From Methanobacteriota archaeon (GTDB taxonomy: Archaea > Thermoplasmatota > Poseidoniia > Poseidoniales > Thalassarchaeaceae): a stretch of 64,000 nucleotides of DNA. A program made the translations under genes and the position numbers. Position 1 is the stretch's first letter; every line of letters starts with the position of its first letter. Location of the stretch: positions 11,588 to 75,587 of the forward strand of contig PBMO01000003.1 of the NCBI GenBank assembly GCA_002722595.1, written 5' to 3'. Positions 1 through 64,000 of the stretch are shown one piece after another. The notes beneath the pieces are model-generated. The model did no database searches and was not told the DNA's origin. It saw nothing but the letters and a program-made list of their open reading frames with translations.

Positions 1-3000
1 ACACCTGGAACGTTGAATTCATACCTGACATTAACCTGCCAATCTCCTACAGTTACTGGGTCAAAAATAGCAGTAGTTCCCTGATCGGTTAACCAAGCAG
101 ATGCACTAGATTGATCCATTGACCATATGGCTGACACGCTCCACTCATTTCCATCTGCATCAGATGCATAGGCTGAGATTGTTGCGGTATCTTGGCCACT
201 GACAAGGGTCTGCACTGGCGTGCGTGCTTCAATTGATACCGCAATGCCATGGTTAATTGCCATTGGGACAATGACTTCAACACCCTCCAAGGTTGCTTTT
301 ACCCATGATGAACCTTGATTGGATGCCTCCCAAATTGCCGGTGAGCCTGCAACTAAATTACCATTCAACCAAGTCCACGATGTTATCGAAAGAGTCACCG
401 GTTCGCGGTTGCCTTGTACATCAATTCGTACGACACTTAGATTGACCGATTCATCCGCAGTCATGGTGATACTTTCCAACGTAGGGGAACTTGTAACAAT
501 GATAGTATTCCCTGGGCCAACTGCTGTGACCTCTAGGTCGGCAATATCTCCATATGTTACAGTCATAACATGTTCAGCATGTATCCCAAGGTCACTATCA
601 ACCCAGATATTCCAGACGCCGACATTATCGCCAGTATATTCTCCAGAGGAGTTATCGATGACACCATCTGAAGCACCCCAAGTGAGGACACCTGAGGTAC
701 TTCGATCCTTCAGATTACCGCGTTGATCATATACATCAACATCAAGCATTGTGTTGTTTCCAGCTTCGATAGTATTCGAGCCAGTTATGACAAAGTAATT
801 TGGAGCACCTGTTTCAACTGTGATTTCAATGTTCACTGCCGATATTGTTCCATCAGGGGCAACCCATGAAATGTTCATCCATTGGGTTCCTGCGGTCCAT
901 GGCTCCCAACTGACCTGATTAACAGGTGTTGATGTTGAGTATGCTTGGACCAAACCATCCCAAGTTGCACCTTGGAGGAAAGTGCCGTTGGTGATGTCAA
1001 TAGTAATCATCTCACCAGGGACTACATTTCCATTCACATCAATAACTTCTAGCACAGTTAAATCAAATATGTCATCTGCAGTCAGTGTAATGGATAATGG
1101 CACTACTACCAATTGTACAGGATTACCTGCTGTAACTGTGATGTTTACAGACTCTATGACTTGCCCATATGCTGCAGATACCGTAGTTATACCAGATTGA
1201 TCGGGGACAAAGTAACCATTAGAATCAATGGTTCCATCACTGCAAGACCAAATGACAGACCCCGGCAAATTATTGCCATTAGCATCTAGCAGGGAAGCGC
1301 TGAACTGCACCCCTGTGTCAGCATCTGTTGTCGAAGGTCCTGCCAAACTAATCGAATCAACTGATGTGTAATTAAAATCTAATACTGGACGATCAATTTG
1401 TGTTTCTTCCTCACTTGAATGAACTCCAATTTCCATGTGCCCAGTATTTGGCGAACCGATGATTACGATTGTAATCGTTCCATTCATAGAAGATAGGGCA
1501 CCGCTAACATCGAAATGCAACCAACCTCCCGTAAATGTCGAAGGGACACGTACTGTATCCAATGGACTTGTACTATAGTCTGTGCCAGCAAGGAGGCCGG
1601 GTGTTGACCAGTTGGCACTTGTTGATGCAGAATTCCAAGTTGCACCACTTTCAGCATAATTATTGTTCAAAACAGCATAAGCAGTCAAATCAAGGTGATT
1701 TGCCATCGAATATTCTGTAATTCCGCCACTGTAAAACGACAATTCTGCTGAATGTGGATTTACTGACAATTGGTCTAATGGCATCTGTCCCAAATCAATT
1801 TGGAAAAATGCAATTGACTGACCACTTGCAGATGTACCTAACTGCAATTCCTCATAGGAGCCATATGCAGAATTTGGATTTGAACTATCAATGAAAGTGT
1901 CCCAAATCGGCACATGTCCGAGGTCGTAAACATCAGAACCCTCTTGAATCTCTACTGTGTGAACGTGGTTTCCAAGAGGTGCTATGTCTGGATTACCTAT
2001 ACCAAATGTCCAAGGTACAGATCTCGCGCCTGGAACAGAACCATTCAGTGCTTGGACAGACCAAGTGTAAATTTCCCCTACTGCAAGATCAAAATTGGGT
2101 TGCCAACTGCAGTTGAATGCTGTTATTCCAGTAGAACACGGTATGAAACCGCTGCCAGTGTTCCAGTCTTGGAAAACCTGTGAACCACTACCATTACTCA
2201 ATGTGAGAACATATCCAGTTGCATCGCTTAGTCCATTCCAAGTTAAAATGGGTCTTGTTTCAGTTCCAAGAACATACTGCCCAACATCGTAAACAACCTC
2301 AAATTGTTCGGGTGATACAAGCGTTACTTGGGCTGGTGATGAAGCATTATTGGGATTATCAACATAATCAACTTCTAGTTCTGGCGCATAATCTGATGAA
2401 CCTTCAGCAGAATTGAAGTAAATAGTGCCAGACCAACCTGTTTTCAATGCCATATTGATGGCACCATTTGCGGCCCAAGAAGAGCGAGCTAAACTTGTGA
2501 CGTCCCACTCATACCAAACTCCTGCGTTTGTACTCGAAGATGTCATCGATGATATGGCTGTAGAATTGCACTGCGTACTTGGATTGAAGTTGTTCCAAGT
2601 TACAGCACTCTCACTAAATGAATTGCAATCATGGACAGAAATACTGTGTGCACCAGTCCCAGTAATACTTGCTACATACAAACGCAAAGTGACCGATGTT
2701 GGCAGCATAGTGCTTGGATAGGGGTACTCTGTTAAATCAATTGAAAGCAAGGAGACTGCTTCATGTGCAGATGAGTATGGATCTACCCCAACTGCAAGAG
2801 TTGTGTCTGTGCCGTGATTTTGATATTGCCCTATTACGTTAGAACCAATCCAAGTATCTGGCATTGTCGGAAGAAGGCCTGAATCTTCAAAGACGATTCC
2901 ACGTTGCATTGTTACTGAATAATTGCCAGCACCATCATCAGACCCTTGTTCTTCTGGAACACGGGAGCTGAATGGTTGAGACCAATTGCTGTAGATACCG

Positions 3001-6000
3001 TCTTGAACAGCCCTGACCCTCAAATTGTTCCAATGGTCACCCTGTCCAACACTTGCGGGTGTCCACAAAGTAAGATTGGCTAAATCAAATGTTGAGTTGC
3101 CCCAGGTTGATGAATTGCTTGATTCATAAATCCAAGTATCTGCTGTGAAGCGATCATTCAAGGAATGCTGAATCTGCCACGAATCAATCGAACCGGGACT
3201 CGGATGTGTCCATGTCGACCATAGCGGGTCAGTAGGCATTGGTCGCAATGAGTTCTCATCCCATGCAGTAAATGGGCCATTTGCCGTCAAATTACTGTCC
3301 CATATAGGTGCCACCGGCATGGTTTGAGAACCATTACGATATGTGATTTCAACATAGGGTCTGAATGCAGCATAGTTGCTTGATGCATGTTCCTGTATGA
3401 ATGAATGGCGCGCATACAAATTTGGATCCTCAGATGCAAACAGGAGTGAAAGTGTATCGTTGCCATAGATGTGGGCTTGTTGCATCAATTGAGTGACATT
3501 CCAAGTATACCATCCATTCCCACTAACATTAGTTGTTGCAAACGGTGTTTGTACATCATTGACACCATTAACACCAGATACTTGCCATGAATTGTTAGTT
3601 GCACAACTATTCCAAGTGACACTGGCTTCATCCCATCCACACAACACACCTGAGACGGAGATATCTGTATCGTAACTCGATGAACCACTGAGTCTATACA
3701 TCCACACTTGGGCATCAATTACTTGCCACTGTCCTCCATCCATTATAGGTACATTTGAAACATCAAATCGAACAAGTGAACGTGCTTCATGGCCGGCATT
3801 TGTGCATGCAGGGCCAGCAGCCGAAGACCCTACAGAAAGATAACTTGCTGAATTACCAAAAGCAGTATTTGCGTTACAAGAATCAATGTAGGCTCCTTCG
3901 GTAGTATCATATGCACCACTCGCAGTATGTGCATTACCATTTCGAAGATACACTGTGTTGTCAGTTGAATTGACTGGGACTGATATGTCATTGGGTATTC
4001 TGAAAATCTCATTCACAGAAGATGGGCCCACCATTAAGCCATTCATTGGAGCAACAAACCAACTCCAAGTAGTATCTTGGTCTGCTTGACCTCCTTCGAA
4101 TGTCAGATTCTGCAAATCCGTCTGGGACCATGACACCTCACTATTTGTGCATTCTACTCCATCCCAAATAACGCCATTTGCAATGGCACAAATAATCCAT
4201 CCATCGATATTGGTTATATCAGGGTGTGACCAATCAAATTCAATGACATCGTCAGATGTCATTGCAGGATATTCCCACACAATTTCATTGTTTACCGGAT
4301 AAACAAGTGTTGCAGGAGTAGAGGGGGTTGTTCTAGTTCCATTCATCCATGCCAAAGAAAGCACTGGTTCATTTGCTTCAAACTGTGTCTCAGTACTTGC
4401 TAGTACTATTCTATCTGAGGAATTTAGTTCGGCACTTAGAAGCAAATCTACCGAACTATTACCATTAGCGAGGGCATTCTGAGCAAGGCGAGTGAAGTCA
4501 AAAGAAATCCAATCACTAGCTGCTTGATCAAATTGGATATGTGTCCAATCACCTCTGTCCGTCGAACCTTGAGCTCCAATTGAGGACCAATTGTTTATCC
4601 CGTCGTAGGTCAATCCTGTTGCAGATTCATTCCAATCCTGAAGCGCATCAAAAGAGGCTACCGTGGGCGTACTCGAGTTGTTAGATAGAACATAAAACGA
4701 AATGGATGCTTCAACTAAACGCGCATTGGATGGCATTGGCAGTGCCCCAAGACCACTTATTGGAATCTCGACCAATGCACTGGATGTACCCGAAATGAAA
4801 AGTGTATCATCGGATTCATGCGAGTCATTTAAGTGGGCAGAATCCCATGAAATCCAGGTATCTGTAAACAGTGGCAGACTCCCATCAGACAACACATCTC
4901 CATGGCCCATTTCTACTACATAGGCCGTTGTGTTGTGGATGTTTTCTGAGGTCACATCTAGATCAGGAATCACAAATTCAGAGGACGTAGACCACAATCC
5001 AACTTGGCCAGTTTCTGAAATACCTCTTACCCGCCAATAGAAGGTTTCACCGCCAGTTAGATTATTTGAGAATGTGAAATTAGCATCACTAAATTCACTT
5101 GTATCAACCCAAGAAGAGTAGGTTGAAAGGGCACTGGACGAGAAACTCGGAGATTCATCAACCTGAACCTCCCAAGCATTAGCTACGGTAGAACCTGTTT
5201 CATTCCATGATAGAGTAGGGGTTTTGTCTACTGTGAAAGTGTAATCACCACTGAGAATCCAGTCTCCATTTGCTGGAGACATATCGATTGGAACGTCAGG
5301 TGCCGCATTTGAACCGTTGGTATATATCAGAACTAGTTCAGGCATTGAACCACTCCCTCGATCATAGAAAGTGACCGCATTCCAACTCTCAGACACCAAT
5401 ATGAAATCGAGACGCGAATCGGTGCGCATAGCACTCTGGGCTGCAGCCGTAACATTCCATTCATACCACGTATTGTCTGAACTGATGTCAATTGTGTCCA
5501 ACGTCTGCACTCTTTCTGAACCGCTAGCACCTACTGAATTCCAAGGAGTTACACCGTCTGTGGTATTCCAAGTAGCAGTACTTTCGACCCAATCATGCTC
5601 GCTACTTTCGTATGCAGTCATTGGAATATCAAAAGTCGATATGCCTGAGTTTTGCATAGTGCGTAGCCTCATCGTTGCAGAAACGATTGCGACGCCCTCG
5701 GGAAGTTGATGACTACGCAAATCACATCCAAAAAGTATGACCTGCGAATCAGATGCTGTCAAATCTTGACCATCCAGATTCATACCAGATGCGGGGCCAC
5801 CCTCAAGAGTTAAATCCGCACATTTCGGATATTCGAGATTGGAGTTCAGGTGTGTCCCATTACCATGACGGTAACGTAACTCATACTCATCATCCCCCAA
5901 ATCTGTTGAATTGATTTGGCTAATCAGCATAGTTTGCCCTATCCATGGACTCTGTTCATCATCCTCAACCATTAGCAACCGCCAATAGTACTCTTCAGCC

Positions 6001-7967
6001 CAGTCCAAATTCCACCCAGATGGAATCACAAACTCACCATTTGTGAGATCAAATCCATTGTTTGTCCGGCTATCTGCACTTAGTGGAAGGGATGCGCCTT
6101 GACCACTTGGCCACAGTTCAATGATAACATCACCAGGATTTCCGTTACTTTGAGTTGAAATGGATGGATCCCAAGACAATGTTGGAGTAGTGGTACCATC
6201 CAATTCCCAACCGTCTAAATCCCATGCAGCGCTGCCATCTGCGGGAGTGATATTTGTGGGACTAGGTGTAGCAGTAGAATCACCCCATGAATAAATCAAG
6301 TCTAGATGCGGACGATAACTCTCAGGCTCATCACTGGATGCGATTTCGACTTCTTCTCCTGCATCACCCATTCCTCTGATGATGAAATCCAAACTGCCAT
6401 TTTGTCCACTCCGCAAGTATTGTTGGACGAATGGAGTGGCATCGAATGTGAAAGTGGATGTCCCTGTTTGATCTCCTTCAACAACACCCAGTAATCCGTT
6501 TTCTGCAAGGTTGTCCAAGCCTCCGGAATTCCAAGAGCTACCATTACTGCGATTAGCATAATTCAACTCACTGAATACATGACCTGTGCCAGATTCCATA
6601 ACCCAGGCTGAAATCATAGGTGCACCTGTCCGACCGGTACGCCGGATATTTAGGGAAGCCTCGTGAATAGTTACGTTATCGTGGATTGGGACATTTTCCA
6701 TGTCAACTCGTATAAGTGAGTGCATGTCGCTCTCATTTGTCAAATTCGAATGCCCAACTCGCATGCGTAAGTCATCGTCACCAATGTAGGTGCTGTTTCC
6801 AGATAATACCCAAGTATCATGTATAATTTTGTAGAGACCAAGTGTACCTGTCCTTAGTTCAATCTCAGCCTGACTATTGAAGTTTAGAGACCCAGTTTCA
6901 GCAGGTAAACCAAAGTAACCCACTTCCCAAGGACCTGCGATTGAATTGTTCAAAGAACGCATCCTGAACCACACCCACATGCCTCCATCAATTGTCGAAT
7001 CGCAATTCGAAGAACACTGAAATTCATTTGTTGAAAATAAACTCGAATCATCCAAACTGTTCCAAGTCAAGTCATTATTGTGTAGTGAACGGAAATCATC
7101 GCTAGCAGAGAATTGAATTTCTAGGTCACCCGATGTCAGATTTGACCATGAGATTTTTGGACTCCGATCAGGAGCAATTACCAATTCAGTAGGGTCAGCG
7201 ATTATTGTACCATTTGTAGGGCCAGCAACAGCGATGCTGCCCTGGAGTGGGGCAGTCCCCAAAGTGTACTCAAACGAAATAGATGGCCGTTCCCCAGATG
7301 TAGGATGCTCACTAGAGGCACACCAAACAAGGGAACCGATACCTGAGATTACGATACTCAGATTAGAATCGCCATTTCGTAACGATTCCTGAACTAGAGA
7401 TGTTATATTCAAAGAAAATACACCTCTGCTAGCAGTGATATTATCCTGATAACCTGGCTGCCATAGGCCTCTGTCAGTATGGACGCCTTCTACACCACTT
7501 ACATTCCAAGGAGAGCCGGTATCGCTCAAATTATGTGTCGCATTGGCTTCATTGAAAGGTGTAAGTAGGCGGGCTGGATAGAGGGCGGTATCATTTCCTT
7601 CAAGCATCTGTGTAGAAAAACCACGACATGTCAAATCCAAAGTTGCTGCACTAACAACTGCAGTAGTTGGCAAAGAGCCACCTCCATTGAGGGTTAACGG
7701 TATTGTGGCAAGAATCCTCGCACTAGTCACAAGTGGATCATCTCCAACTAACAAATTCTGAGCACTGCCATAATTTGTTGATGGCTGGCTAGAATTAGTC
7801 TGTGTGTCCTGAGAAAGTGACGTACTTGCGGTTAGAAATCGCGGTTTCGGTTCCTCTTCAAGTGGGGTTTCATTACTCAATAATTGCCCCCATGTGCTGA
7901 ACAACATCAAGCAAACCATCAAAATGGCTGCAATTGTTGAACTCCTGTTTTTTACTCCGTACATCAT
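1..7967 (-). CDS. Giant secreted/surface glycoprotein. The 5' end is complete and the 3' end is cut by the window edge (at least 2655 codons in window). It has an N-terminal signal/anchor, seven DNRLRE-like modules alternating with FN3-like modules, then Ig-like (Big_2-like) repeats.
   Basis: I translated the minus strand by hand from ATG-ATG at 7967/7964 (MMYGVKNRSSTIAAILMVCLMLFSTWGQLL...). It reads to position 3 with no in-frame stop. The frame was spot-checked at about 6350, 4979, 2759 and 1259. The ORF track omits it because no stop lies inside the window. Every listed ORF in 1-8000 is at most 135 aa and in another frame. The protein has a hydrophobic N-terminus, dozens of N-x-S/T sequons and recurring motifs such as DTWI...SL(V/I)RFD...A-x-L...W-x-E-x-x-(V/A)TWN. 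Confidence 0.85.
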   Translation of the reverse strand, partial: MMYGVKNRSSTIAAILMVCLMLFSTWGQLLSNETPLEEEPKPRFLTASTSLSQDTQTNSSQPSTNYGSAQNLLVGDDPLVTSARILATIPLTLNGGGSLPTTAVVSAATLDLTCRGFSTQMLEGNDTALYPARLLTPFNEANATHNLSDTGSPWNVSGVEGVHTDRGLWQPGYQDNITASRGVFSLNITSLVQESLRNGDSNLSIVISGIGSLVWCASSEHPTSGERPSISFEYTLGTAPLQGSIAVAGPTNGTIIADPTELVIAPDRSPKISWSNLTSGDLEIQFSASDDFRSLHNNDLTWNSLDDSSLFSTNEFQCSSNCDSTIDGGMWVWFRMRSLNNSIAGPWEVGYFGLPAETGSLNFNSQAEIELRTGTLGLYKIIHDTWVLSGNSTYIGDDDLRMRVGHSNLTNESDMHSLIRVDMENVPIHDNVTIHEASLNIRRTGRTGAPMISAWVMESGTGHVFSELNYANRSNGSSWNSGGLDNLAENGLLGVVEGDQTGTSTFTFDATPFVQQYLRSGQNGSLDFIIRGMGDAGEEVEIASSDEPESYRPHLDLIYSWGDSTATPSPTNITPADGSAAWDLDGWELDGTTTPTLSWDPSISTQSNGNPGDVIIELWPSGQGASLPLSADSRTNNGFDLTNGEFVIPSGWNLDWAEEYYWRLLMVEDDEQSPWIGQTMLISQINSTDLGDDEYELRYRHGNGTHLNSNLEYPKCADLTLEGGPASGMNLDGQDLTASDSQVILFGCDLRSHQLPEGVAIVSATMRLRTMQNSGISTFDIPMTAYESSEHDWVESTATWNTTDGVTPWNSVGASGSERVQTLDTIDISSDNTWYEWNVTAAAQSAMRTDSRLDFILVSESWNAVTFYDRGSGSMPELVLIYTNGSNAAPDVPIDMSPANGDWILSGDYTFTVDKTPTLSWNETGSTVANAWEVQVDESPSFSSSALSTYSSWVDTSEFSDANFTFSNNLTGGETFYWRVRGISETGQVGLWSTSSEFVIPDLDVTSENIHNTTAYVVEMGHGDVLSDGSLPLFTDTWISWDSAHLNDSHESDDTLFISGTSSALVEIPISGLGALPMPSNARLVEASISFYVLSNNSSTPTVASFDALQDWNESATGLTYDGINNWSSIGAQGSTDRGDWTHIQFDQAASDWISFDFTRLAQNALANGNSSVDLLLSAELNSSDRIVLASTETQFEANEPVLSLAWMNGTRTTPSTPATLVYPVNNEIVWEYPAMTSDDVIEFDWSHPDITNIDGWIICAIANGVIWDGVECTNSEVSWSQTDLQNLTFEGGQADQDTTWSWFVAPMNGLMVGPSSVNEIFRIPNDISVPVNSTDNTVYLRNGNAHTASGAYDTTEGAYIDSCNANTAFGNSASYLSVGSSAAGPACTNAGHEARSLVRFDVSNVPIMDGGQWQVIDAQVWMYRLSGSSSYDTDISVSGVLCGWDEASVTWNSCATNNSWQVSGVNGVNDVQTPFATTNVSGNGWYTWNVTQLMQQAHIYGNDTLSLLFASEDPNLYARHSFIQEHASSNYAAFRPYVEITYRNGSQTMPVAPIWDSNLTANGPFTAWDENSLRPMPTDPLWSTWTHPSPGSIDSWQIQHSLNDRFTADTWIYESSNSSTWGNSTFDLANLTLWTPASVGQGDHWNNLRVRAVQDGIYSNWSQPFSSRVPEEQGSDDGAGNYSVTMQRGIVFEDSGLLPTMPDTWIGSNVIGQYQNHGTDTTLAVGVDPYSSAHEAVSLLSIDLTEYPYPSTMLPTSVTLRLYVASITGTGAHSISVHDCNSFSESAVTWNNFNPSTQCNSTAISSMTSSSTNAGVWYEWDVTSLARSSWAANGAINMALKTGWSGTIYFNSAEGSSDYAPELEVDYVDNPNNASSPAQVTLVSPEQFEVVYDVGQYVLGTETRPILTWNGLSDATGYVLTLSNGSGSQVFQDWNTGSGFIPCSTGITAFNCSWQPNFDLAVGEIYTWSVQALNGSVPGARSVPWTFGIGNPDIAPLGNHVHTVEIQEGSDVYDLGHVPIWDTFIDSSNPNSAYGSYEELQLGTSASGQSIAFFQIDLGQMPLDQLSVNPHSAELSFYSGGITEYSMANHLDLTAYAVLNNNYAESGATWNSASTSANWSTPGLLAGTDYSTSPLDTVRVPSTFTGGWLHFDVSGALSSMNGTITIVIIGSPNTGHMEIGVHSSEEETQIDRPVLDFNYTSVDSISLAGPSTTDADTGVQFSASLLDANGNNLPGSVIWSCSDGTIDSNGYFVPDQSGITTVSAAYGQVIESVNITVTAGNPVQLVVVPLSITLTADDIFDLTVLEVIDVNGNVVPGEMITIDITNGTFLQGATWDGLVQAYSTSTPVNQVSWEPWTAGTQWMNISWVAPDGTISAVNIEITVETGAPNYFVITGSNTIEAGNNTMLDVDVYDQRGNLKDRSTSGVLTWGASDGVIDNSSGEYTGDNVGVWNIWVDSDLGIHAEHVMTVTYGDIADLEVTAVGPGNTIIVTSSPTLESITMTADESVNLSVVRIDVQGNREPVTLSITSWTWLNGNLVAGSPAIWEASNQGSSWVKATLEGVEVIVPMAINHGIAVSIEARTPVQTLVSGQDTATISAYASDADGNEWSVSAIWSMDQSSASAWLTDQGTTAIFDPVTVGDWQVNVRYEFNVPG
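1400..7760 (-). repeat. Protein-level seven-fold super-repeat of about 0.94-1.02 kb per unit inside the giant ORF (DNRLRE-like beta-sandwich plus FN3-like module).
   Basis: The hallmark W-N codon pair of the (V/A)TWN-type motif recurs in frame. The W codons sit at 7506, 6531, 5568, 4632, 3612, 2595 and 1635, giving spacings of 975, 963, 936, 1020, 1017 and 960 nt. The units are diverged at DNA level, so this is not a recent tandem duplication. Confidence 0.7.
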
Positions 7968-8112
7968 GGCCCTCGGCTTCGCACAGAACAAACTACTGTT
8001 AATCACTTACGGTGCATGACCATACTACGTATGGTCTATGCAGGCCACTTTTTTCGCTGCATTGTCAGTGGATAGGTTCATTGACAACCGCTACAAACAG
8101 CAATTGGTTCCG

Positions 8113-9066
8113 ATGTCGAAAATGTGGGTTGAGAAGCATCGCCCAAGCACTGTACGCGATATTCGCGGGCAAGCTGCAACAGTCGAGCGGTTGGCTGCTT
8201 ATGCTGATTTAGGAACATTCCCACACCTGCTGTTTGCTGGACCACCGGGGACAGGGAAAACTACTGCAGCACTCGCATTATGTTTCGACATATTTGGTGA
8301 ACGTTCTAAGGATAATTTACTCGAGATGAATGCGAGTGATGAGAGAAAACTGGAAAATATTAGGACTAAAGTGAAACAATTCGCGAGAACTAGTCCGCTC
8401 GGTGTTGATTTCAAGGTGATTTTTCTTGATGAGGCCGATGCCTTGACTGCCGATGCACAGGGAGCATTAAGACGGATTATGGAGCAATATGCAGAAACCT
8501 GTCGCTTCATTCTATCTTGCAATTATTCATCGAAAATTATTGAGCCTATTCAATCGAGATGTGCTGTTTTTAGATTCCGCCCACTAGCAGATGATCAAGT
8601 CCGCATGCAAATTGAAACCGTTGCAAAGTCAGAAGGTATTGAATTAGATCAGGATGCTTGTGAAGCAATAATACATGTCAGTTTAGGCGACTTGCGTAGA
8701 GCCATAACTGCACTACAAGTTAGTGCAAGTCTGAGTAATCATGTAACGCGGTCTCTGATTTATGAAACGACTGCGACTGCGCCTCCAGAAGACTTGCATG
8801 GATACTTGCTTGCTTGTAAAGAGGATGGATTCCATCCTGCAAGAAGGCGTTTGCGGACAATATTGGATCAGTTTGGGTTAGCGGGGACTGATTTGGTGAA
8901 CCAACTACATAGGGCGCTATACGATGCAGATTTCTTCAGTGAAACACAGAAACTTGACATTACTGAAATGATGGCGACTATCGATTTTAGACTTGTTGAG
9001 GGAGGTGGGGAGTCCCTCCAACTAGATTCGATGACTGCAACAATATGCTCAATGTTTCGTGACTAA
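8113..9066 (+). CDS. rfcS: Replication factor C small subunit (clamp loader).
   Basis: It has MWVEKHRP at the N-terminus, Walker A GPPGTGKTT, Walker B FLDEADALT and the SRC motif IQSRCAVFRF. The listed ORF starts at 8038. The ATG at 8113 (MSKMWVEKHRP) matches the family N-terminus. Confidence 0.93.
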   Translation: MSKMWVEKHRPSTVRDIRGQAATVERLAAYADLGTFPHLLFAGPPGTGKTTAALALCFDIFGERSKDNLLEMNASDERKLENIRTKVKQFARTSPLGVDFKVIFLDEADALTADAQGALRRIMEQYAETCRFILSCNYSSKIIEPIQSRCAVFRFRPLADDQVRMQIETVAKSEGIELDQDACEAIIHVSLGDLRRAITALQVSASLSNHVTRSLIYETTATAPPEDLHGYLLACKEDGFHPARRRLRTILDQFGLAGTDLVNQLHRALYDADFFSETQKLDITEMMATIDFRLVEGGGESLQLDSMTATICSMFRD

Positions 9067-10376: not shown

Positions 10377-10502
10377 TGCCGGGAGCGGGGCTCGAACCCG
10401 CGACCTTCGGATGTCTCAGACATTTCTAGGGTTATCTCGCTCATTTCTCACCTTAATGGTAGTCCTATGAGTCCGACGCGCCACCAACTACGCCACCCCG
10501 GC
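10377..10502 (-). tRNA. tRNA with CAU anticodon (elongator Met, or Ile2 if C34 is modified) carrying a 53-nt intron at the canonical 37/38 position.
   Basis: The cloverleaf was folded by hand. The acceptor is GCCGGGG/TCCCGGC with discriminator A. The D arm is GCGT-AGTTGGTG-GCGC. The anticodon stem is TCGGA/TCCGA with loop CTCATAA once spliced. The T arm is GCGGG-TTCGAGC-CCCGC. The anticodon CAT lies at 10467-10469 on the minus strand. Confidence 0.88.
10413..10465 (-). other. tRNA intron with a canonical helix-bulge-helix-bulge-helix (BHB) splice motif.
   Basis: The central 4-bp helix pairs CUCA (nt 32-35) with UGAG near the intron 3' end. It is flanked by the 3-nt bulges UA^G and AC^A, which carry the two splice sites. 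The outer helix GAC/GUC lies within the intron. Confidence 0.8.
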
Positions 10503-11987: not shown

Positions 11988-13544
11988 ATGGAGAGCGATA
12001 TGGGCGGTAAAGGCGAAGAGTTGTCATGGCGCAGAAGTCAGGCATTATCAGGCGGCGGGATGAAACGCCTTGAGAACCTCCGTGAAACCGGTAGAGGCAC
12101 TGCTAGAGAACGACTGGATGCATTGTTAGATCCCGATAGTTTTGTCGAAACTGACGCATTAATCAACCACCGAAATCACCAAGGAAACATGCACGTGCAC
12201 CCACAATTTGGCGATGGAGTAGTTGCTGGCCACGGAAGTGTAGACGGGCGAAGAGTGTTCTGCTTCAGTCAGGACTTCACCGTTTTTGGTGGTTCAATGG
12301 GAGAAATGCATGCTAAGAAAATTACCAAAGTGATTGAAATGGCAGAAAGAGCACGTGTCCCACTAATCTGTATCTGGGATGGAGGCGGCCAACGGGCTCA
12401 CGATGGTGTCCACTCACTCGCAGCAACTGGGGAAATGCTAGACCGCTTGGTATCCTGCTCAGGGCGAATACCAATGGTCAGTTTGGTCCTCGGGCCAGTT
12501 GTAGGAGTATCTGCTCTTGCAGCTGCGATTGCTGATTTTGTAATCTTAGGTGAAGAACATGGGCAACTTTTTCTTTCAAGTCCGTTAGAAACTGCCGAAA
12601 CAGTCTCGGGTGAGATGAGTAATGAAGATTTAGGCGGTGCACAAATGCATGCATCCCGATCAGGAATTTGTTGCCTCACTGCAGATGATGAGAATGATGC
12701 CATGGACATTGCAATTGAATTGCTTTCCTTCTTTCCAGATTATTGTGGTGCGAGTCCTCCCCATCTAGATTCAGGAGATCCACATGACAGAGATTGCCCT
12801 ATACTCAAAGAGATTGTACCAAGTGATAGCAATCGTCCATATGACATTGTTAAAGTCATCCAAGGTACGGTTGACGACTCACATTTTGTTGAATTATTCC
12901 CCAATTATGCAGACAATATCGTTGTTGGTATGGCGCGATTAGCAGGCCACCCAATCGGCATAATTGCTAACCAACCAAAAGTCCTCGCCGGATGCTTAGA
13001 TATTGATGCTAGTATCAAAGCCGCACGTTTCATCCGTACATGTGACGCATTCAACATACCCCTCCTCTCTTTCGTCGATGTACCTGGTTTTTTACCAGGT
13101 ACTGTGCAAGAATGGGGTGGTATTATACGGCATGGTGCAAAAATGCTGTATGCATATGCTGAGGCAACTGTACCTATGCTTACTGTCGTCACACGCAAAG
13201 CGTATGGAGGTGCCTATTTGGCTATGGCATGTAAGCATCTGGAATCTGACTACAACGTGGCTTGGCCTACGGGAGAACTTGCAGTCATGGGAGCAGAGGG
13301 CGCCGTCAATATCATCCACAGGCGCGAATTGAAAGATGCCGAAAACTATCAAGAAAAACACGCAGAACTTGTTGAGGATTACCGAAATAAATTTGGAGAC
13401 CCTTATGTGGCAGCAAGAAATGGGTGGTTGGATGATGTTATTGAACCAAATGAAACACGGTTAAGGCTCATACGTGCACTGAAAAGCCTACTCTCAAAAA
13501 GAGTCTGGCAGCCCCCAAGAAAACACGGAAACATTCCACTCTAG
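11988..13544 (+). CDS. Acyl-CoA carboxylase carboxyltransferase (beta) subunit, propionyl-CoA carboxylase / methylmalonyl-CoA carboxyltransferase family.
   Basis: Its 518 aa include TARERLDALLDPDSFVE, two crotonase-like halves, FGGSMGE and GGAYLAM-type motifs. Confidence 0.88.
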   Translation: MESDMGGKGEELSWRRSQALSGGGMKRLENLRETGRGTARERLDALLDPDSFVETDALINHRNHQGNMHVHPQFGDGVVAGHGSVDGRRVFCFSQDFTVFGGSMGEMHAKKITKVIEMAERARVPLICIWDGGGQRAHDGVHSLAATGEMLDRLVSCSGRIPMVSLVLGPVVGVSALAAAIADFVILGEEHGQLFLSSPLETAETVSGEMSNEDLGGAQMHASRSGICCLTADDENDAMDIAIELLSFFPDYCGASPPHLDSGDPHDRDCPILKEIVPSDSNRPYDIVKVIQGTVDDSHFVELFPNYADNIVVGMARLAGHPIGIIANQPKVLAGCLDIDASIKAARFIRTCDAFNIPLLSFVDVPGFLPGTVQEWGGIIRHGAKMLYAYAEATVPMLTVVTRKAYGGAYLAMACKHLESDYNVAWPTGELAVMGAEGAVNIIHRRELKDAENYQEKHAELVEDYRNKFGDPYVAARNGWLDDVIEPNETRLRLIRALKSLLSKRVWQPPRKHGNIPL

Positions 13545-16285
13545 TCTAATTCGGCGAAATCTGCCTCCAAGGCATCTAGATCATATTCATCAGAATTCGA
13601 CTCCTTTTCATTGGCAAGTATTTTTTCCATATCTGAATTAGATATTGTTGCAATCATGTATAATCCAATTATGGCGATTACTGAAGCAACTACTATTGCA
13701 AGAACAACCCAAATTGAGAAGGGGCCATTTTGTGTATTGACTGGGATTTGCGGTAAATTTTGTTCGCCTAAATCGGCATCAGAAAGAGGGACTGTATGAT
13801 AATACACTTTCACAGAGGACCAATTCTGATTCTCCAATACTCGCACTTCAAGGCGATGGGCTCCAGCTAGAAGTTCACTTGTGCTAACCTTGACAGCGCA
13901 TTCCCACATATTCGTATTCGCTTCAATACAAACCGTTTCAGCATCATCCCATAGTTTCCCGTCCCATCGAGTTTCTATTGTCCAAGGAGAAGCATCATCT
14001 GGATCATAAATCACTACCGTGAATGAAACTTCTTCATCTCCACTAATGGAGCCCCATGTAAGTTGAGATGGATCGTTTACTTCTGATACTATCAATTCAA
14101 GATTTACAGTCGATTGCCCATCGATACTGGTTGCTGTGAGGTTCCACTCACTAGAAATTCCCGACCAGTCGGATGAAGGAACTATTCTCAATACACTGGT
14201 CAAAACATCCACCTGTATGTGTGGATGCCCTCCGGTTATTGAAAACGATAAGTCATCACCATCTTCATCCCACCCGATTTCAGATAGGGGAATTTCTATT
14301 GGGGTATCCTCAATTAATTCCACAGTGGTCAAATTTAGAAATGGAGGGTCAGCCACAGATGCAATATTGACTCGAATCAAAGATTGGATTGGTTGACTGG
14401 TTAAGTCTCCGACCCATAAGTCAACCGTCGCCACACCATTCCAATTTGTTGTGGGTGTGACTGTGAGATTAGATTCATCCCAAGAAACTGTCAATCCAGA
14501 ATCGCAGGTTGCATTAATGATGTGAACTGAATTACCTTCTGGATCCATGAAATATGGTCTAATGTCTATCGTATCCGAAGTTCCATCCTCTACCAACTGA
14601 AGTTCGGGAAGTGGATTCAATTGATTCACTGAGTCATCAACTGCGAAAACACTCGCATTGAGATTAAATTGTATTGAGAAATTGGTATCGTATCGATCGA
14701 ATGCTGTTAAATTCAGAATTTCAGTACCTGCCCATTCGGGCGACCCTGTATGTTCACACCTCAATGAGGTTTCTTTGAGGAAACAATGCATTTGATTAGT
14801 ACTTGGCAAATGGGCATCCATCTCAATGAACATTGAGGTGCCATCGGGGTCGGTGACTATTTCAGAAAATGGAATCTCAGCAAATCCGTGTTGTGGGACA
14901 CTCAAATTTGGAAGGGGGTTTGCCAGAACAGGTTCCTGATTTATCCGATAGAAATCAACGTCTATGAATGATGGCATCCCAAACCAATTCACATTCACAC
15001 GTACGGTTCTATTACCAGGAGGAACTCCCTCTGTAGGCACATCACAATCTGTTTTAGATAGTTCCCCTGGTACAGTTGATGATGTGAATACACCTGTGGA
15101 ATTGACCCCATAGGTTTCAAAATCTGCAGGATCCCACCAATCCCCGCCTTCCGTGATTGTACATGATACTGTGGTGCCAATTGGTGCACTACCATCACGA
15201 TGTAACAATTGGGTTGAGACAGAAACAACCCTTCCATTCATCCCATCCCATTCATTTGTGTCAGAAGAATTGTAGTCCATTGGCAAAAAACGAGCAGCGG
15301 TCAAGTCTTCATCAATATATGAATCCGAATCTGATGGACTTTCCCAATTTGTTTCTCGATTAGTAGCATTTAGCCACTGAGTATGATCTCCTTTCAGCAT
15401 CAAATCGAAATATGGTAGAATATGGTCTATGGCGTGTCCCTGCTGAACATCTCTAGTCATTGTTGCATCACCATCATTAAAGCCCTCAAAGAAGTCATTC
15501 TCATCTTGATATTGGATATGATTGGCACCTATTACTGACATATAGTGCCATGGAAATTCATGGTTTTCCAACCAGACCTCAACGTTCGACTCAGATGGTG
15601 CCATCTCGTCGAAACTTCCTGTTAGATAAAGCCCCATTCCGGGCCCTGGAGATGGGCCAAAACTAGAACTGGATACATCCGTATTTACATCTGAAAGGGC
15701 TAATCCCACTATTGCGTTGGGAAGTGATGTGTTTGCAAGATATTGCAACCAATCCCCTGACATTAGTAATTGACAAGTTGCTGCTTGTTTTGCACCAACT
15801 CCATGACCACCGAAGCCCCAATTTTTTGAATCCATAGTCACATTGCCAAAGTAACCTTGTAGTCCAAAATATAGGTTAATTGCCTCAACACATTGTACAG
15901 ACGTTTGTTCGGCAGTCCAATCGGGAGGCAGAACCACAACAAGATAACCCGCTGATGCTAAATTATTCCCAACCCAATCGTATTGATCAACCTCTTCTCC
16001 TTCATCACCAAACCACATTACAAGAGGGTATGGGCCCGAGGCATTGTCAACAGGAGTTGAGAAGCCATTCGATAATGCAGGATAATATGCTAAAGAATTG
16101 TGAGTTTCATTTTCACCATCCTCCCAAGACAAATATGACGTGCCAACAGGAAAAGTATCAACTTCAACTGAGGGCGAGAATGATTCACCACTAGCTTCCG
16201 CGACAGATATTAGTGAGAATAATATGAGAAGCGCCAATAGTGTAGCCACTCTATTTCCGGCCATCAAACCTCTGAGATTTAACAT
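13541..16285 (-). CDS. Large type-I surface protein: signal peptide, alpha/beta-hydrolase-like domain lacking the nucleophile Ser, cadherin/Ig-like repeats, C-terminal TM helix and an acidic tail.
   Basis: The signal peptide reads MLNLRGLMAGNRVATLLALLILFSLISVAEA. The PLVMWFGDEG...AGYLVVVLP...GFGGHGVGA layout resembles the dienelactone-hydrolase/cutinase fold. The C-terminal TM segment is FSIWVVLAIVVASVIAIIGLYMI. It has many N-x-S/T sequons. The ATG lies at 16285, with a GTG at 16288. Confidence 0.8.
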   Translation of the reverse strand: MLNLRGLMAGNRVATLLALLILFSLISVAEASGESFSPSVEVDTFPVGTSYLSWEDGENETHNSLAYYPALSNGFSTPVDNASGPYPLVMWFGDEGEEVDQYDWVGNNLASAGYLVVVLPPDWTAEQTSVQCVEAINLYFGLQGYFGNVTMDSKNWGFGGHGVGAKQAATCQLLMSGDWLQYLANTSLPNAIVGLALSDVNTDVSSSSFGPSPGPGMGLYLTGSFDEMAPSESNVEVWLENHEFPWHYMSVIGANHIQYQDENDFFEGFNDGDATMTRDVQQGHAIDHILPYFDLMLKGDHTQWLNATNRETNWESPSDSDSYIDEDLTAARFLPMDYNSSDTNEWDGMNGRVVSVSTQLLHRDGSAPIGTTVSCTITEGGDWWDPADFETYGVNSTGVFTSSTVPGELSKTDCDVPTEGVPPGNRTVRVNVNWFGMPSFIDVDFYRINQEPVLANPLPNLSVPQHGFAEIPFSEIVTDPDGTSMFIEMDAHLPSTNQMHCFLKETSLRCEHTGSPEWAGTEILNLTAFDRYDTNFSIQFNLNASVFAVDDSVNQLNPLPELQLVEDGTSDTIDIRPYFMDPEGNSVHIINATCDSGLTVSWDESNLTVTPTTNWNGVATVDLWVGDLTSQPIQSLIRVNIASVADPPFLNLTTVELIEDTPIEIPLSEIGWDEDGDDLSFSITGGHPHIQVDVLTSVLRIVPSSDWSGISSEWNLTATSIDGQSTVNLELIVSEVNDPSQLTWGSISGDEEVSFTVVIYDPDDASPWTIETRWDGKLWDDAETVCIEANTNMWECAVKVSTSELLAGAHRLEVRVLENQNWSSVKVYYHTVPLSDADLGEQNLPQIPVNTQNGPFSIWVVLAIVVASVIAIIGLYMIATISNSDMEKILANEKESNSDEYDLDALEADFAELD

Positions 16286-16311
16286 CACACTTCAAACCGA
16301 CGCAATTGAGT

Positions 16312-17340
16312 TTAACTGGAATTGATTAGTTTTTCAAGTGCAATTAAACGGGTCATAGTCAAACCTAGGCCAGGCAATAAATGTGCGAATTCAGGAGAAT
16401 ATATTCGCGACCAAGCCTGTAGATGCTGGGCAGCAAGAAGCCATCGCCCATCTAATTGGATACGAGCACCTTCATGTTCGACAACCCGCGCCACCTTTTC
16501 TGAACTGTAGGAGGCAGATATCTGAATATCGGCAATTGTATGCATGGATTTGGATGGTTTTCCAGCTTCTGTGTCGAAATCGACAAAAAGTCTCATGCCA
16601 AGATGTCCAACGACTTCTTCATCGGCAATAATTGCGTTTTTCCAAGAACCTCTTGTACCAAGATCTCTGCGGCCTTTGATTGGCCAGATTTTACCTCCTG
16701 ATTCTGCCCATGATGCTGCACATGAGCGTGCTGAACCACCGCCACCGACCATGCAAAGTAGTGGTGAATCGATACCATCTAAATCGAAATCAAAGCCAAA
16801 GTGTTGTGCTATTGAAACAAGGCCAAAACCATCAGTCCCTACAGCATACCAATTTATTCCATCCCAACGCAACTGATTAACAGCACCATTTTCTAGGCAC
16901 CCATCTAAAGCGTGTATACCTGACCTTGTATTCAGTAAATGTTTGAGGGGGCTAGTTATTGATATCCATGTTTCGATTTCGCCTCGACGCTTACGTAGAT
17001 GCTCACCTTCTTGGTTGAACAGTGTCTCAAGATGTGGGACATGATCTATATCGGCAGCCTCTACTTGCAAAATTGCTGAGCGTGCAAAGCCAATCAGTTT
17101 GGATATGGATTCACTTGAGAAGTCGCCATAGAGAGGATGCTCTTTTTTGTCACTAGGGATGCCTTTCTGCACCCAAGCCCAGGCCATTGGAGACATTACA
17201 TCTTTTGTGTCTATAAGATCTAACTCCTCAACCTTCATTTCCAATCCTGCTTTTTCTAAATGTGCCACGGTTAATGCAAACAATGCTGGGGAAAGGGAAT
17301 GCTCAACCGGTGAGCCCGCAACCGCATATCGGATTCGCAT
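16312..17340 (-). CDS. aroE: Shikimate dehydrogenase-like protein (AroE family), unusually long.
   Basis: It carries GSPVEHSLSPALF (G-x-P-I-x-H-S-x-SP), ITSPLKH (catalytic Lys), GTDGFG (NTD motif) and VGGGGSARS (NADP loop). It is 342 aa against about 270 aa typically, with an insertion of about 70 aa after the first motif. Confidence 0.7.
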   Translation of the reverse strand: MRIRYAVAGSPVEHSLSPALFALTVAHLEKAGLEMKVEELDLIDTKDVMSPMAWAWVQKGIPSDKKEHPLYGDFSSESISKLIGFARSAILQVEAADIDHVPHLETLFNQEGEHLRKRRGEIETWISITSPLKHLLNTRSGIHALDGCLENGAVNQLRWDGINWYAVGTDGFGLVSIAQHFGFDFDLDGIDSPLLCMVGGGGSARSCAASWAESGGKIWPIKGRRDLGTRGSWKNAIIADEEVVGHLGMRLFVDFDTEAGKPSKSMHTIADIQISASYSSEKVARVVEHEGARIQLDGRWLLAAQHLQAWSRIYSPEFAHLLPGLGLTMTRLIALEKLINSS

Positions 17341-17448
17341 CTTGCCTCGAGGGTCCGTGTGCCCGCTCCTTCACAAAGCAAACGGATACGCATCTTCGAG
17401 GTTCTAATTCCATGAATGCTTGAATACCGGAAGCGTTGCAGCAGCGTT

Positions 17449-45184: not shown

Positions 45185-45219
45185 ATGGGCCCCTCGTAGT
45201 GATTCAAACTTGAAAGTTC

Positions 45220-59338: not shown

Positions 59339-59364
59339 AGGGTGACCAGAAAGAACACCCCTAT

Positions 59365-59718
59365 TCAATTGAGCGCTATACGGGATATGGAAATTAGTGT
59401 TGTTATCCACATCCAATAGAACATCACTTGTCTTGTCAAATGGGTCGATGGCCTCCAACCAATTAGAGCCTCAGTCATTTCTTTGACAAACCACCCTTCT
59501 TCATGTTCCTCAATATGTTCGTTTCCTAAAATCAGGTGCTCCCAAGTGGTGAAAATACATGTTCGATTATTGAGGCGCCAGTGCAAACGAGTCAATGGAG
59601 TTAATATCGCATGAGTAACCCATGCAGTCAACCAAGGAAGTGACCATCCAAACATCAGAAAAAGCATCACTAGTAAATGGGAAAAACGTACCAATTTCGC
59701 ACAGAAGAAACGCCACAT
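59365..59718 (-). CDS. Small membrane protein, DUF2784-like; paralogue of 59723..60103.
   Basis: Both share the pattern G(W)xLPW...W...H...(T/R)xC(I)(F/L)TT(W/I)E...L with the neighbouring gene, followed by GWF/GGF and ALIGW. It has 2-3 TM segments. Confidence 0.6.
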   Translation of the reverse strand: MWRFFCAKLVRFSHLLVMLFLMFGWSLPWLTAWVTHAILTPLTRLHWRLNNRTCIFTTWEHLILGNEHIEEHEEGWFVKEMTEALIGWRPSTHLTRQVMFYWMWITTLISISRIALN

Positions 59719-63790: not shown

Positions 63791-64000
63791 ATGGGCATGG
63801 CTCTACACGTCTATGATACACGTACTCGTGAGAAACGTCTGTTTGAAACCGCTCGAACTGGCGAAGTCGACATGTATGTCTGTGGGATCACGCCCTATTC
63901 CCCATCACATTTAGGACACGCTCGATGTTACATCGCCTTTGACCTAATCCACCGCTGGTTGGAAGCTAGTGGTTGGACTGTAAATTATGTCCAAAACTTT
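63791..64000 (+). CDS. cysS: Cysteinyl-tRNA synthetase, N-terminal 70 codons (3' end cut by the window edge).
   Basis: I translated it by hand as MGMALHVYDTRTREKRLFETARTGEVDMYVCGITPYSPSHLGHARCYIAFDLIHRWLEASGWTVNYVQNF. MYVCGITPY plus HLGH (the HIGH motif) match the CysRS N-terminus. It is not in the ORF track because it has no in-window stop. Confidence 0.85.
   Translation, partial: MGMALHVYDTRTREKRLFETARTGEVDMYVCGITPYSPSHLGHARCYIAFDLIHRWLEASGWTVNYVQNF

Follow-up and report, generated by a model that had tools for sequence, protein, structure and literature searches.

A giant open frame at the edge of the window

The window, by which we mean the whole stretch of 64,000 nucleotides analysed here, comes from a Thalassarchaeaceae (MGIIb) genome. 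Its first 8 kb (positions 1-8000) seem nearly devoid of genes, the ORF lister returning only ORFs of 60-135 aa there. Machine translation of the minus strand, complement(3..7967), gives 2,655 codons, and the in-frame stop that the preliminary description had named as the finding to count against its single giant ORF is absent from them (0 stops); the random expectation for a stop-free run of this length at 44% GC is ~1e-67. The translation starts MMYGVKNRSS, with an ATGATG at 7967, just as that description had it, and the closest upstream in-frame stop lies at 8009, 14 codons away. Independent support for coding status comes from the 19 homologues returned by the first search, and from a pN/pS of 0.30 relative to a near-identical copy, indicative of purifying selection. 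The gene is missing from the ORF list because its frame exits the window and the lister leaves out ORFs that run off either end, which is the explanation originally offered.

A second contig (L001), 99.8% identical at the DNA level, supplies the rest of the gene, and a protein of 3,103 aa (P0001) is 100% identical to the window translation over the query. With the second ATG (7964) as its start, the full gene comprises 3,103 codons and 9,312 nt (~9.3 kb), in agreement with the earlier statement that its true size was over 8 kb; the stop lies ~1.35 kb past window position 1. The window holds 85.5% of the gene (the first 2,655 codons), and the portion outside encodes three and a half Ig-like domains, one transmembrane helix and a cytoplasmic tail. 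It is also the largest gene in the window, as had been claimed, the runners-up being ORFs of 1,229 and 1,185 aa, and these small genomes probably contain none larger. The full-length protein has a mass of 335 kDa and a pI of 4.05, and contains almost no lysine (0.3%).

On its 5' side the gene shares a divergent intergenic region of ~145 bp (7968..8112, from reading the sequence) with the gene for the RFC small subunit, and this region presumably holds the promoter of the giant gene. The RFC family match begins at residue 26 of the 8038 ORF. At the other end of the window, the 3'-truncated cysS noted previously at 63791..64000 could be verified: its 70 aa correspond to positions 1-66 of the TIGR00435 cysS model (E = 1.3e-22). 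ARAGORN finds no tRNA in the window, and Rfam finds one, which bears an intron.

Domain plan, termini and topology

The protein consists of seven DNRLRE/CBM96 domains (D) alternating with six FN3-like domains (L), followed by eight Ig-like domains. The D domains are recognised by the DNRLRE model NF033679 of NCBIfam, with 275.5 bits in 7 stretches (cut-off 34), and by the CBM96 model PF24517 of Pfam, with 188 bits (cut-off 26). No internal repeats are detected by self-BLASTP of the giant protein; the repeats are too diverged for this, identity among the seven D domains being only 18-24%, and iterative HMMs of our own were required to place the D, L and Ig domains. The resulting 7 D + 6 L + 8 Ig domains cover residues 53-2990 with gaps of at most ~25 aa, and all are of an extracellular β-sandwich type. 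Neither Pfam nor NCBIfam gives a match to any catalytic family, and since the domains tile residues 53-2990 there is no space for a catalytic module. The D domains are therefore not carbohydrate-binding modules (CBMs) in the CAZy sense, which denotes a module appended to a carbohydrate-active enzyme.

All domains are encoded on the minus strand, and the D-FN3 super-repeat of ~325 aa occurs seven times. Unless stated otherwise the E values are those of our own HMMs. The N-terminal part of the head contains D1 (7269..7808; E = 2.5e-42), L1 (6819..7268; E = 1.7e-35), D2 (6294..6818; E = 1.5e-48) and L2 (5826..6293; E = 3.4e-41). D3 (5325..5816) was placed by our HMM and has in addition a weak match to the Pfam TGFb_propeptide model, while the spacer that follows it, L3 (4863..5324), was found by our HMM and also just passes the cut-off of Pfam Ig_Rha78A_N (27.8 bits against 27.4). 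After D4 (4350..4862; E = 4.7e-43) and L4 (3900..4349; E = 2.2e-36) comes D5 (3342..3896), again from our HMM, with a match to Pfam Disaggr_repeat at 34.3 bits (cut-off 33.9), and then L5 (2862..3341; E = 2.6e-43). D6 (2367..2858) is the best Pfam/NCBIfam stretch and was modelled together with L6 (1902..2363), itself placed by our HMM; the head ends with D7 (1371..1901; E = 4.4e-46). Our HMMs place the stalk domains at 1116..1328, 798..1085, 540..770, 237..464 and 3..203, the fifth being cut through by the window edge. The first of them is Big_1-like (E = 2.9e-5), at 24.5 bits, which is below the Big_1 cut-off of 34.9. The window ends before Ig domains 6-8, the transmembrane helix and the cytoplasmic tail.

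An AF2 model of D6-L6 has a pLDDT of 79.8, with ~85-90 for the D6 part; the alignments behind our AF2 models are shallow (17 and 15 rows). Structural comparison pairs the modelled D6 with the chondroitinase CBM 8wab at a TM score of 0.70 and with the CBM96 structure 7vbo at 0.67, giving it the β-sandwich fold of the solved members, while the modelled L6 resembles the FnIII domains of titin and integrin β4 (TM score ~0.6).

The preliminary description had called the protein signal- or anchor-bearing and very rich in N-x-S/T sequons, and our analysis upholds both points. A putative signal peptide or signal-anchor is encoded at 7884..7967 (minus strand), where the basic n-region MMYGVKNRSS precedes a hydrophobic core, TIAAILMVCLMLFSTW; the motif is kept in the orthologues, and the Kyte-Doolittle 19-mer maximum (2.03) falls at residues 10-30. 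The only other strong hydrophobic segment in the full protein is found at residues 2996-3030, the single C-terminal transmembrane helix of the giant protein, whose predicted topology is type I. Sequons number 65, compared with 38.2 ± 5.3 in 20,000 shuffles, none of which reached 65 (z = 5.0); the reversed motif, used as a control, showed no enrichment (z = 0.7). All 66 sequons of the full protein lie in the ectodomain and 0 in the tail. Every orthologue has 50-71 of them, and in the orthologues the conservation of sequon Asn residues is 0.72, compared with 0.54 for other Asn.

The tail, which is acidic and predicted to be cytoplasmic, ends in a Trp-rich mini-domain of 35 residues. It is the most conserved segment of the protein, with 56% identity to the most divergent group compared with 25-48% for the ectodomains. 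The AF2 model of the tail, again from a shallow alignment, has four strands at a pLDDT > 90. A WW domain was considered and rejected: Pfam gives no hit at E <= 10, and four strands are modelled, not three. A search for the fold in the PDB gave no match better than E = 1.5, and an apparent likeness to the designed "Pizza" propellers was discarded on finding that the PDB profile score was the sum of short-hairpin matches, each insignificant. Nor is the domain common to the two downstream paralogues described below or to the 1,229-aa PKD protein, as an HMM of the tail hits giant orthologues only; its matches include fragmentary copies of these orthologues.

Orthologues and genomic setting

We found orthologues at 58 loci among the GTDB species representatives, in both Poseidoniales families, with an identity of 43-76% in Thalassarchaeaceae and 35-37% in Poseidoniaceae. 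The GTDB scan used a single peptide pattern, with an alignment of orthologues only, so this distribution is a lower bound. When only ORFs closed at both ends are considered (n=35), 32 are 3,003-3,199 aa long and the remaining 3 are cut short. All 32 orthologues of normal length have exactly 7 D + 6 L, with 7 or 8 Ig domains, and every D domain aligns with its same-position counterpart in all orthologues. Similarly, ~14 clusters at 50% identity (from 1.84 billion representatives) have the layout of 7 stretches in ~3,000 aa. The low identity among the D domains (18-24%) indicates that the repeats are ancient and do not recombine.

The setting of the gene is equally constant. At all loci with enough flanking sequence the upstream order is GatD, two small ORFs and the RFC small subunit, the last divergent to the giant gene. 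Downstream, one or two Ig-stalk paralogues follow directly in 23/23 loci inspected. The next gene encodes a collinear paralogue of D7, the Ig stalk and the transmembrane segment (24.6% identity, E = 2e-44), and the third gene encodes an Ig stalk plus a transmembrane segment. At the three Thalassarchaeaceae-type loci where genes have been called, these paralogues are followed by panB, an amino-acid permease and LigB. The giant protein is ~63% identical to that of other species, a divergence similar to that of its housekeeping neighbour GatD (67-70%), while RFC is at 84-91%. The combination of one chromosomal site and one domain plan points to a core part of the cell surface rather than a strain-variable adhesin.

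Members of the family are annotated only as "DNRLRE domain-containing protein". Our literature searches on giant or surface proteins of MGII, S-layers and metaproteomes gave no description of it, nor did the papers on MGII genomics, transcriptomics and viruses that we read, the transcriptome study making no mention of the gene; the family is uncharacterised.

Possible roles at the cell surface

On balance, we consider it probable, if by no means certain, that the giant gene encodes a core, order-wide, N-glycosylated type I membrane protein of the surface, acting as a structural envelope fibre or outer coat that displays lectin-like modules to the exterior, as opposed to an adhesin that varies between strains and can be dispensed with. 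Export would be directed by the N-terminal Sec-type signal, and the one C-terminal transmembrane helix seen in the sequence keeps the protein in the membrane. The ectodomain of ~2,990 residues, a string of 21 β-sandwich domains with no catalytic module, is likely to be N-glycosylated at some of its 66 sequons, given their excess and conservation. Its membrane-proximal part would be a stalk of eight Ig-like domains, and beyond this would extend a head in which six FN3 spacers separate seven diverged lectin-fold domains of the DNRLRE/CBM96 family; from typical domain sizes, the fully extended fibre might measure ~80 nm. Inside the cell, the 35-residue Trp-rich C-terminus is predicted to form a small four-stranded β mini-domain, which probably links the fibre to a partner in the cytoplasm or to further copies of the protein. 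The downstream Ig-stalk paralogues, also predicted to be type I membrane proteins, probably assemble with the giant protein, as their conserved adjacency suggests. A more elaborate version of this model is speculative and, in our estimation, rather unlikely: the giant protein and its paralogues would constitute the envelope scaffold of the Poseidoniales, a fixed-length "ruler" of 21 domains making up an outer coat or S-layer equivalent, with the four-stranded tail, resembling a propeller blade, oligomerising and so organising the fibres from inside.

Marine group II (MGII) are the most abundant planktonic archaea of surface waters and are still uncultured (PMC6461757). The comparative-genomics papers that we examined contain no description of the MGII cell envelope, and treat adhesion only via flagella, thrombospondin and flotillin genes. 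The size of the giant gene, its presence in both families and the constancy of its 21-domain plan, neighbours and mini-domain all mark its product as a strong candidate for the principal structure on the surface of MGII cells. If correct, this bears on how these cells meet polymers, particles, grazers and viruses.

A possible, though doubtful, alternative is that the protein is first of all a multivalent adhesin, whose seven CBM96-fold domains bind the glycans of algae or particles (e.g. acidic exopolymers) and tether the cell to phytoplankton-derived polymers; this keeps the function proposed in the preliminary description and drops its hypervariability. Links of Poseidoniales to particles and to blooms of phytoplankton have been reported repeatedly, with adhesion held to be important for them (PMC6461757), in agreement with such a role. 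HMM matches put the D domains in DNRLRE/CBM96, the D6 model overlays both the chondroitin-sulfate-binding CBM (8wab, 25% identity) and the alginate-binding CBM96 (7vbo), and adhesins are usually built as long fibres with FN3 and Ig domains as spacers. Since the fold of the head domains is that of two characterised CBMs, their primary role may be binding. However, the details of the ligand groove argue against it. Mutagenesis of the CBM96 module TM6-N4 has identified K10, K22, K25, K27, K31, R36 and Y159 as alginate-binding residues (PMC9971899), and all seven are replaced in the 126 D domains compared, the first three by G/S, T/Q/D and mixed residues, respectively, and the other four by G/S, gap/G/D, A/S/Q and mixed residues. 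At the columns equivalent to the groove, conservation is 0.39-0.51, lower than the 0.52-0.59 of the remainder of each domain, so that these positions evolve faster than the rest of the D domain, and none of them has a conserved basic residue. Alginate binding thus cannot be transferred from CBM96 to the giant protein, and the CBM96 label does not imply it. Furthermore, every D domain is acidic, with a net charge of -4 to -21, making direct binding of polyanions unfavourable; the domains may bind through another face or by Ca2+ or Mg2+ bridges despite the loss of the TM6-N4 groove. No CAZyme module is found in the giant protein or, at most loci, in the adjacent genes, and the number and position of its domains are frozen across the order, which is unusual for adhesins. 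An adhesin role is no more than plausible, since the residues through which the one characterised CBM96 binds alginate are missing here.

It is also conceivable, but to our minds improbable, that the giant protein forms an S-layer or S-layer-equivalent lattice of the Poseidoniales, with the Ig-stalk paralogues as further parts of a regular outer envelope. The DNRLRE domain was originally described from surface proteins and S-layer proteins of archaea and from disaggregatase (PMC2447325, PMC9971899), which would be in keeping with this proposal. The order-wide presence and fixed architecture, the stalk-like paralogues conserved alongside, the pI of 4.05 and the sequon excess all fit, and the features of an S-layer glycoprotein (a secreted, anchored, acidic and sequon-rich ectodomain, with a C-terminal transmembrane anchor) can be read from the sequence itself. 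Against this, Pfam and NCBIfam give no match to a described S-layer family at E <= 0.1, and the PDB holds no sequence relatives of the giant protein beyond the two CBMs. Typical S-layer subunits are several times smaller than 335 kDa, and 21 domains strung like beads would make a fibre more readily than a tile of a lattice.

Finally, the suggestion in the preliminary description that the gene is a strain-variable giant adhesin of varying repeat number in a hypervariable island, for which one may cite the frequent location of giant surface proteins in variable islands generally and the faster divergence of this protein than of RFC (~63% against 84-91% identity), is highly improbable and did not hold up, because synteny is identical in both families, all 32 normal-length orthologues have the same 7 D + 6 L, the internal repeats are 18-24% rather than nearly identical, the gene matches the second contig at 99.8% identity compared with 99.4% for its flank, and the GC of the gene region equals that of the rest of the window.

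The structural fibre that we favour can be compared with several known systems. Closest to its head domains are the CBM96 module TM6-N4 of the alginate lyase Dp0100 (7vbo) and the chondroitinase CBM (8wab), with both of which they align at E ~1e-5. Each of the seven clears the cut-offs of the family HMMs by a wide margin, and the modelled D6 has the same β-sandwich fold; even the weak resemblance to the TGF-β propeptide that the authors of the CBM96 study reported (PMC9971899) is present in the giant protein. In contrast to these modules, however, its domains have no catalytic module and occur in seven copies per membrane-anchored fibre, lack the basic Lys/Arg groove that binds alginate in 7vbo, and are strongly acidic, with hardly any lysine. 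Cell-surface and S-layer-related proteins of Methanosarcina, and disaggregatase, also carry DNRLRE domains (Adindla et al. 2004, PMC2447325). Like them, the giant protein is archaeal and predicted to be at the cell surface, and its D5 matches the disaggregatase-related repeat. It differs in coming from Poseidoniales, in its much larger size and regular D-FN3 super-repeat, in its Ig stalk, transmembrane anchor and conserved cytoplasmic mini-domain, and, from disaggregatase, in having no disaggregatase catalytic region.

The S-layer glycoproteins of Haloferax and Halobacterium and the SlaA/SlaB proteins of the Sulfolobales are membrane-anchored, acidic, N-glycosylated S-layer comparators from the archaea. 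Judged by its sequence features, the giant protein shares with them a signal, a C-terminal anchor, an acidic and lysine-poor ectodomain and many sequons, is lineage-wide, and has a stalk-like partner encoded next door. However, it matches none of their families in Pfam or NCBIfam and is three to four times larger, it has a proteinaceous transmembrane helix and a folded cytoplasmic tail in place of a lipid-modified or short anchor, and its domain plan favours a fibre over their lattice. Giant bacterial adhesins of the Bap, LapA, SiiE and MpIBP type, which are Ig-repeat fibres, are built from near-identical repeats of variable copy number and have a patchy distribution; they are secreted through a T1SS or have their anchor in the outer membrane or the cell wall. 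The giant protein resembles them as a tandem β-sandwich fibre of several thousand residues that would hold putative ligand-binding modules far from the cell. Its repeats, in contrast, are ancient (18-24% identity) and fixed in copy number, and it is syntenic, universal in its order and predicted to be anchored by a transmembrane helix of its own.

The apparently empty 8 kb is a real gene

The preliminary description held that the first 8 kb of the window, although they look empty, are a single giant ORF missed by the ORF track, and translation bears this out. The minus strand reads from 7967 to 3 through 2,655 stop-free codons, with the N-terminus MMYGVKNRSSTIAAILMVCLMLFSTWGQ. The frame begins at ATGATG, and a script placed the closest in-frame stop upstream at 8009; at 44% GC such an open frame would arise by chance with a probability of ~1e-67. 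The ORF listing gives only ORFs of 60-135 aa in 1-8000 and, by its own statement, omits those running off an end. The description was likewise right about cysS, cut at the right-hand window end (63791-64000, plus strand), whose 70 N-terminal codons match TIGR00435 positions 1-66 (E = 1.3e-22). In GC content (0.44-0.45) the giant region does not differ from the remaining window.

The full-length protein, P0001 (3,103 aa), was found in the protein database with 100% identity along the entire query. Its contig, L001, shares 7,962 bases with the window at 99.8% identity, and the 2.6-kb flank is 99.4% identical. Since P0001 and L001 give the full length, the window holds 85.5% of a 9.3-kb gene, the product of which has a mass of 335 kDa and a pI of 4.05. 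Codon differences between L001 and the window comprise 8 synonymous and 8 non-synonymous changes (pN/pS 0.30). We conclude that the giant is a real gene under purifying selection.

The RFC small-subunit ORF on the opposite strand (8038-9066, plus strand) is listed as 342 aa and as such probably starts too early. Residue 26 is where the family match sets in, and orthologues have 314-318 aa, which points to ATG 8113 as the start; the RFC gene and the giant would then diverge from a common intergenic region of ~145 bp. Elsewhere in the window, a minus-strand tRNA (10377-10502; Rfam 52.7 bits) has the anticodon loop CUCAU (CAU), making it Met or Ile2, and an intron of ~55 nt at the canonical site after position 37/38; ARAGORN, which reported no tRNA anywhere in the window, missed it. 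An 869-aa ORF (40714-43323, plus strand) has a signal-like N-terminus and a Peptidase_M28 domain (97-330) fused to a full MFS_1 transporter (452-818). One possibility is an extracellular aminopeptidase fused to a permease, an arrangement that would couple peptide trimming to uptake.

A type I membrane protein of beta-sandwich domains only

The top family matches of the giant were NCBIfam DNRLRE (275.5 bits, seven stretches) and Pfam CBM96 (188 bits), accompanied by weak overlapping matches to Disaggregatase-related repeat and TGF-beta propeptide, and by sub-threshold matches to Big_1 and Ig_Rha78A_N. Self-BLAST of the giant revealed no repeats, and iterative HMMs were therefore built from the orthologue alignment. 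These resolved seven DNRLRE (D) domains, starting at residues 53, 383, 717, 1035, 1357, 1703 and 2022 (period ~325 aa), with six mutually homologous spacers of 150 aa between them, and eight Ig-like domains from residues 2213 to 2990. As the unassigned stretches are all of ~25 aa or less, the protein has no catalytic module. Hydropathy identified two hydrophobic segments only (residues 10-30 and 2996-3030). An AF2 model of D6 and its spacer (pLDDT 79.8, pTM 0.69) comprises a beta-sandwich and then an FN3 fold, with a low-confidence linker of ~30 aa. In Foldseek comparisons the D6 model resembled a chondroitin-sulfate-binding CBM (8wab, TM 0.70) and the alginate-binding CBM96 7vbo (TM 0.67), and the spacer model matched titin and integrin FnIII domains. 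Taken together, these results show that the giant is a type I membrane protein made up of beta-sandwich domains only. Its seven D domains have a pairwise identity of 18-24%, yet across the order each one lines up with the D domain in the corresponding position, indicating that the repeats are ancient and individually maintained.

Ser, Thr and Asn account for 29% of the residues, there are 308 acidic versus 77 basic residues, and lysine occurs 8 times only (0.3%). Strong lysine depletion extends to all signal-bearing proteins of the window (0.7-1.2% versus 3.3% pooled), including the ORFs at 13541-16288 (minus), 19173-20690 (plus), 44222-45223 (minus) and 55769-59458 (minus), so that the giant represents the extreme of a proteome-wide trend in exported proteins. 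It contains 65 sequons, compared with 38.2 +/- 5.3 in shuffles (z = 5.0), and control motifs showed no comparable enrichment. All orthologues keep 50-71 sequons, the Asn of which are more conserved than other Asn. Most signal-bearing proteins of the window also have an N-x-S/T excess (e.g. 17 versus 9.4, 14 versus 5), the exception being ORF 44222-45223 (1 observed versus 2.7 expected).

The last 63 residues are acidic, ending VDEDGTEWWQDDDGTWWYRDPEMEDWEEWTE, and the C-terminal 35 codons lie outside the window at about 11836-11940 of L001 (plus strand). The tail carries a Trp-rich motif (VDEDGTEWWqDDdGtWWYRdPxMeDWxEWtE), and no other segment of the protein is as conserved as its final 35 residues, which have 56% identity to the 23 most divergent orthologues versus 25-48% for ectodomains. 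AF2 predicts a four-stranded antiparallel sheet (pLDDT above 90). The tail had no Pfam match and its fold nothing significant in the PDB; the best, non-significant, likeness was a loose one to single beta-propeller blades, which raises the idea that the tails might oligomerise. A tail HMM matched only orthologues of the giant, fragmentary copies included. A 1,229-aa PKD/CARDB surface protein (55769-59458, minus strand; K 0.7%) also has a Trp-rich C-terminal stretch, LPPGWTMEQWNHYGAQWLEQQ, which this HMM rejected as a tail homologue.

A core syntenic block across Poseidoniales

An initial search with the giant returned 19 homologues of 30-100% identity, 18 of which had 3,045-3,140 aa and one of which was truncated (2,459 aa). 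When 1.84 billion representatives were searched exhaustively with a profile, ~14 clusters (50% identity) shared the layout of seven stretches in ~3,000 aa; taken separately, both the D and the FN3 parts were widespread. Scanning GTDB species representatives gave 58 Poseidoniales-type loci, the nearest of them in Thalassarchaeaceae or "Marine Group II" MAGs, and those in Poseidoniaceae (MGIIa)-labelled genomes at 35-37% identity to the full 331-aa probe. From the nearest loci, together with the tRNA and the adjacent RFC and GatD genes, we assign the window to a marine group IIb archaeon. ORFs closed at both ends numbered 35, and 32 of these had 3,003-3,199 aa and seven D, six FN3-like spacer and seven or eight Ig domains; the remaining three, of 1,807, 2,459 and 2,651 aa, were probably truncated by frameshifts or assembly errors. 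The archaeal giant gene, in the archaeal arrangement, also turned up on two GTDB contigs filed as bacterial: L043, under the label Salipiger bermudensis MAG, and L050, under Rhodobiaceae MAG. On L050 an archaeal RFC small subunit lies upstream as well (68.5% identity), and both contigs probably belong to Poseidoniaceae and were mis-binned.

The archaeal RFC small subunit and GatD, the giant's neighbours in the window, recur wherever the flank reaches, RFC divergently upstream and GatD further out. Loci with called genes read GatD, ~284-aa ORF, ~83-aa ORF, RFC, giant, one or two large ORFs, panB, amino-acid permease, LigB. The next gene 3' of the giant, beyond the window edge, encodes a type I membrane protein with a D domain, eight Ig domains and a TM (L001 11885-15337, plus strand); it is paralogous to, and collinear with, the D7, Ig and TM portion of the giant (24.6% identity over 950 columns, E = 2e-44). 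A second paralogue, again type I, has a stalk of six Ig domains and a TM (15339-17810, plus strand). One paralogue follows the giant in Poseidoniaceae-type loci and two in Thalassarchaeaceae-type loci (23/23 loci inspected). In L001 the first paralogue is called from a start 59 nt inside the 3' end of the giant; a Met further on, just ahead of a signal-like segment, is probably its true start. The giant's architecture, length and position, together with its paralogous neighbours, are conserved across Poseidoniales, and the locus is a core syntenic block, not an island.

A probable envelope fibre or a possible adhesin

On balance we lean towards a core envelope role for the giant, as a fibre or outer coat exposing lectin-like modules. 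Such a protein would be exported by Sec and N-glycosylated, would extend as a fibre of ~80 nm and might assemble with its paralogues, with the tail providing cytoplasmic docking.

The main rival, a primarily glycan-binding adhesin, is possible but carries less weight with us. Just one CBM96 has been characterised: TM6-N4 of Dp0100, whose positively charged groove binds alginate via K10, K22, K25, K27, K31, R36 and Y159 (PMC9971899). When 7vbo was aligned to 126 D domains of the giant family, these positions were, in order, G/S; T/Q/D; mixed; G/S; gap/G/D; A/S/Q; and mixed. Conservation in the columns equivalent to the groove was 0.39-0.51 over 33 orthologues, lower than the 0.52-0.59 for the rest of each domain, and none of these columns was conserved as basic; the D domains are all net negative, with charges from -4 to -21. 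The D domains and TM6-N4 thus have a fold in common, but the known binding site is absent from the giant. Carbohydrate binding via another surface or divalent cations is possible. That the giant is a true S-layer lattice protein is a special case that we regard as unlikely. The adhesin of a hypervariable island suggested in the preliminary description is contradicted by the same neighbours and domain plan throughout Poseidoniales, and we give it very little credence.

The family is already public under a generic domain name and is uncharacterised, and we found no mention of it in the accessible MGII literature. What distinguishes the giant is its frozen 21-domain plan, its fixed locus, its partner genes and its conserved cytoplasmic mini-domain. 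Since giant beta-sandwich surface fibres are already a known kind, the giant, as a core envelope fibre, would be a new, uncharacterised member of that kind.
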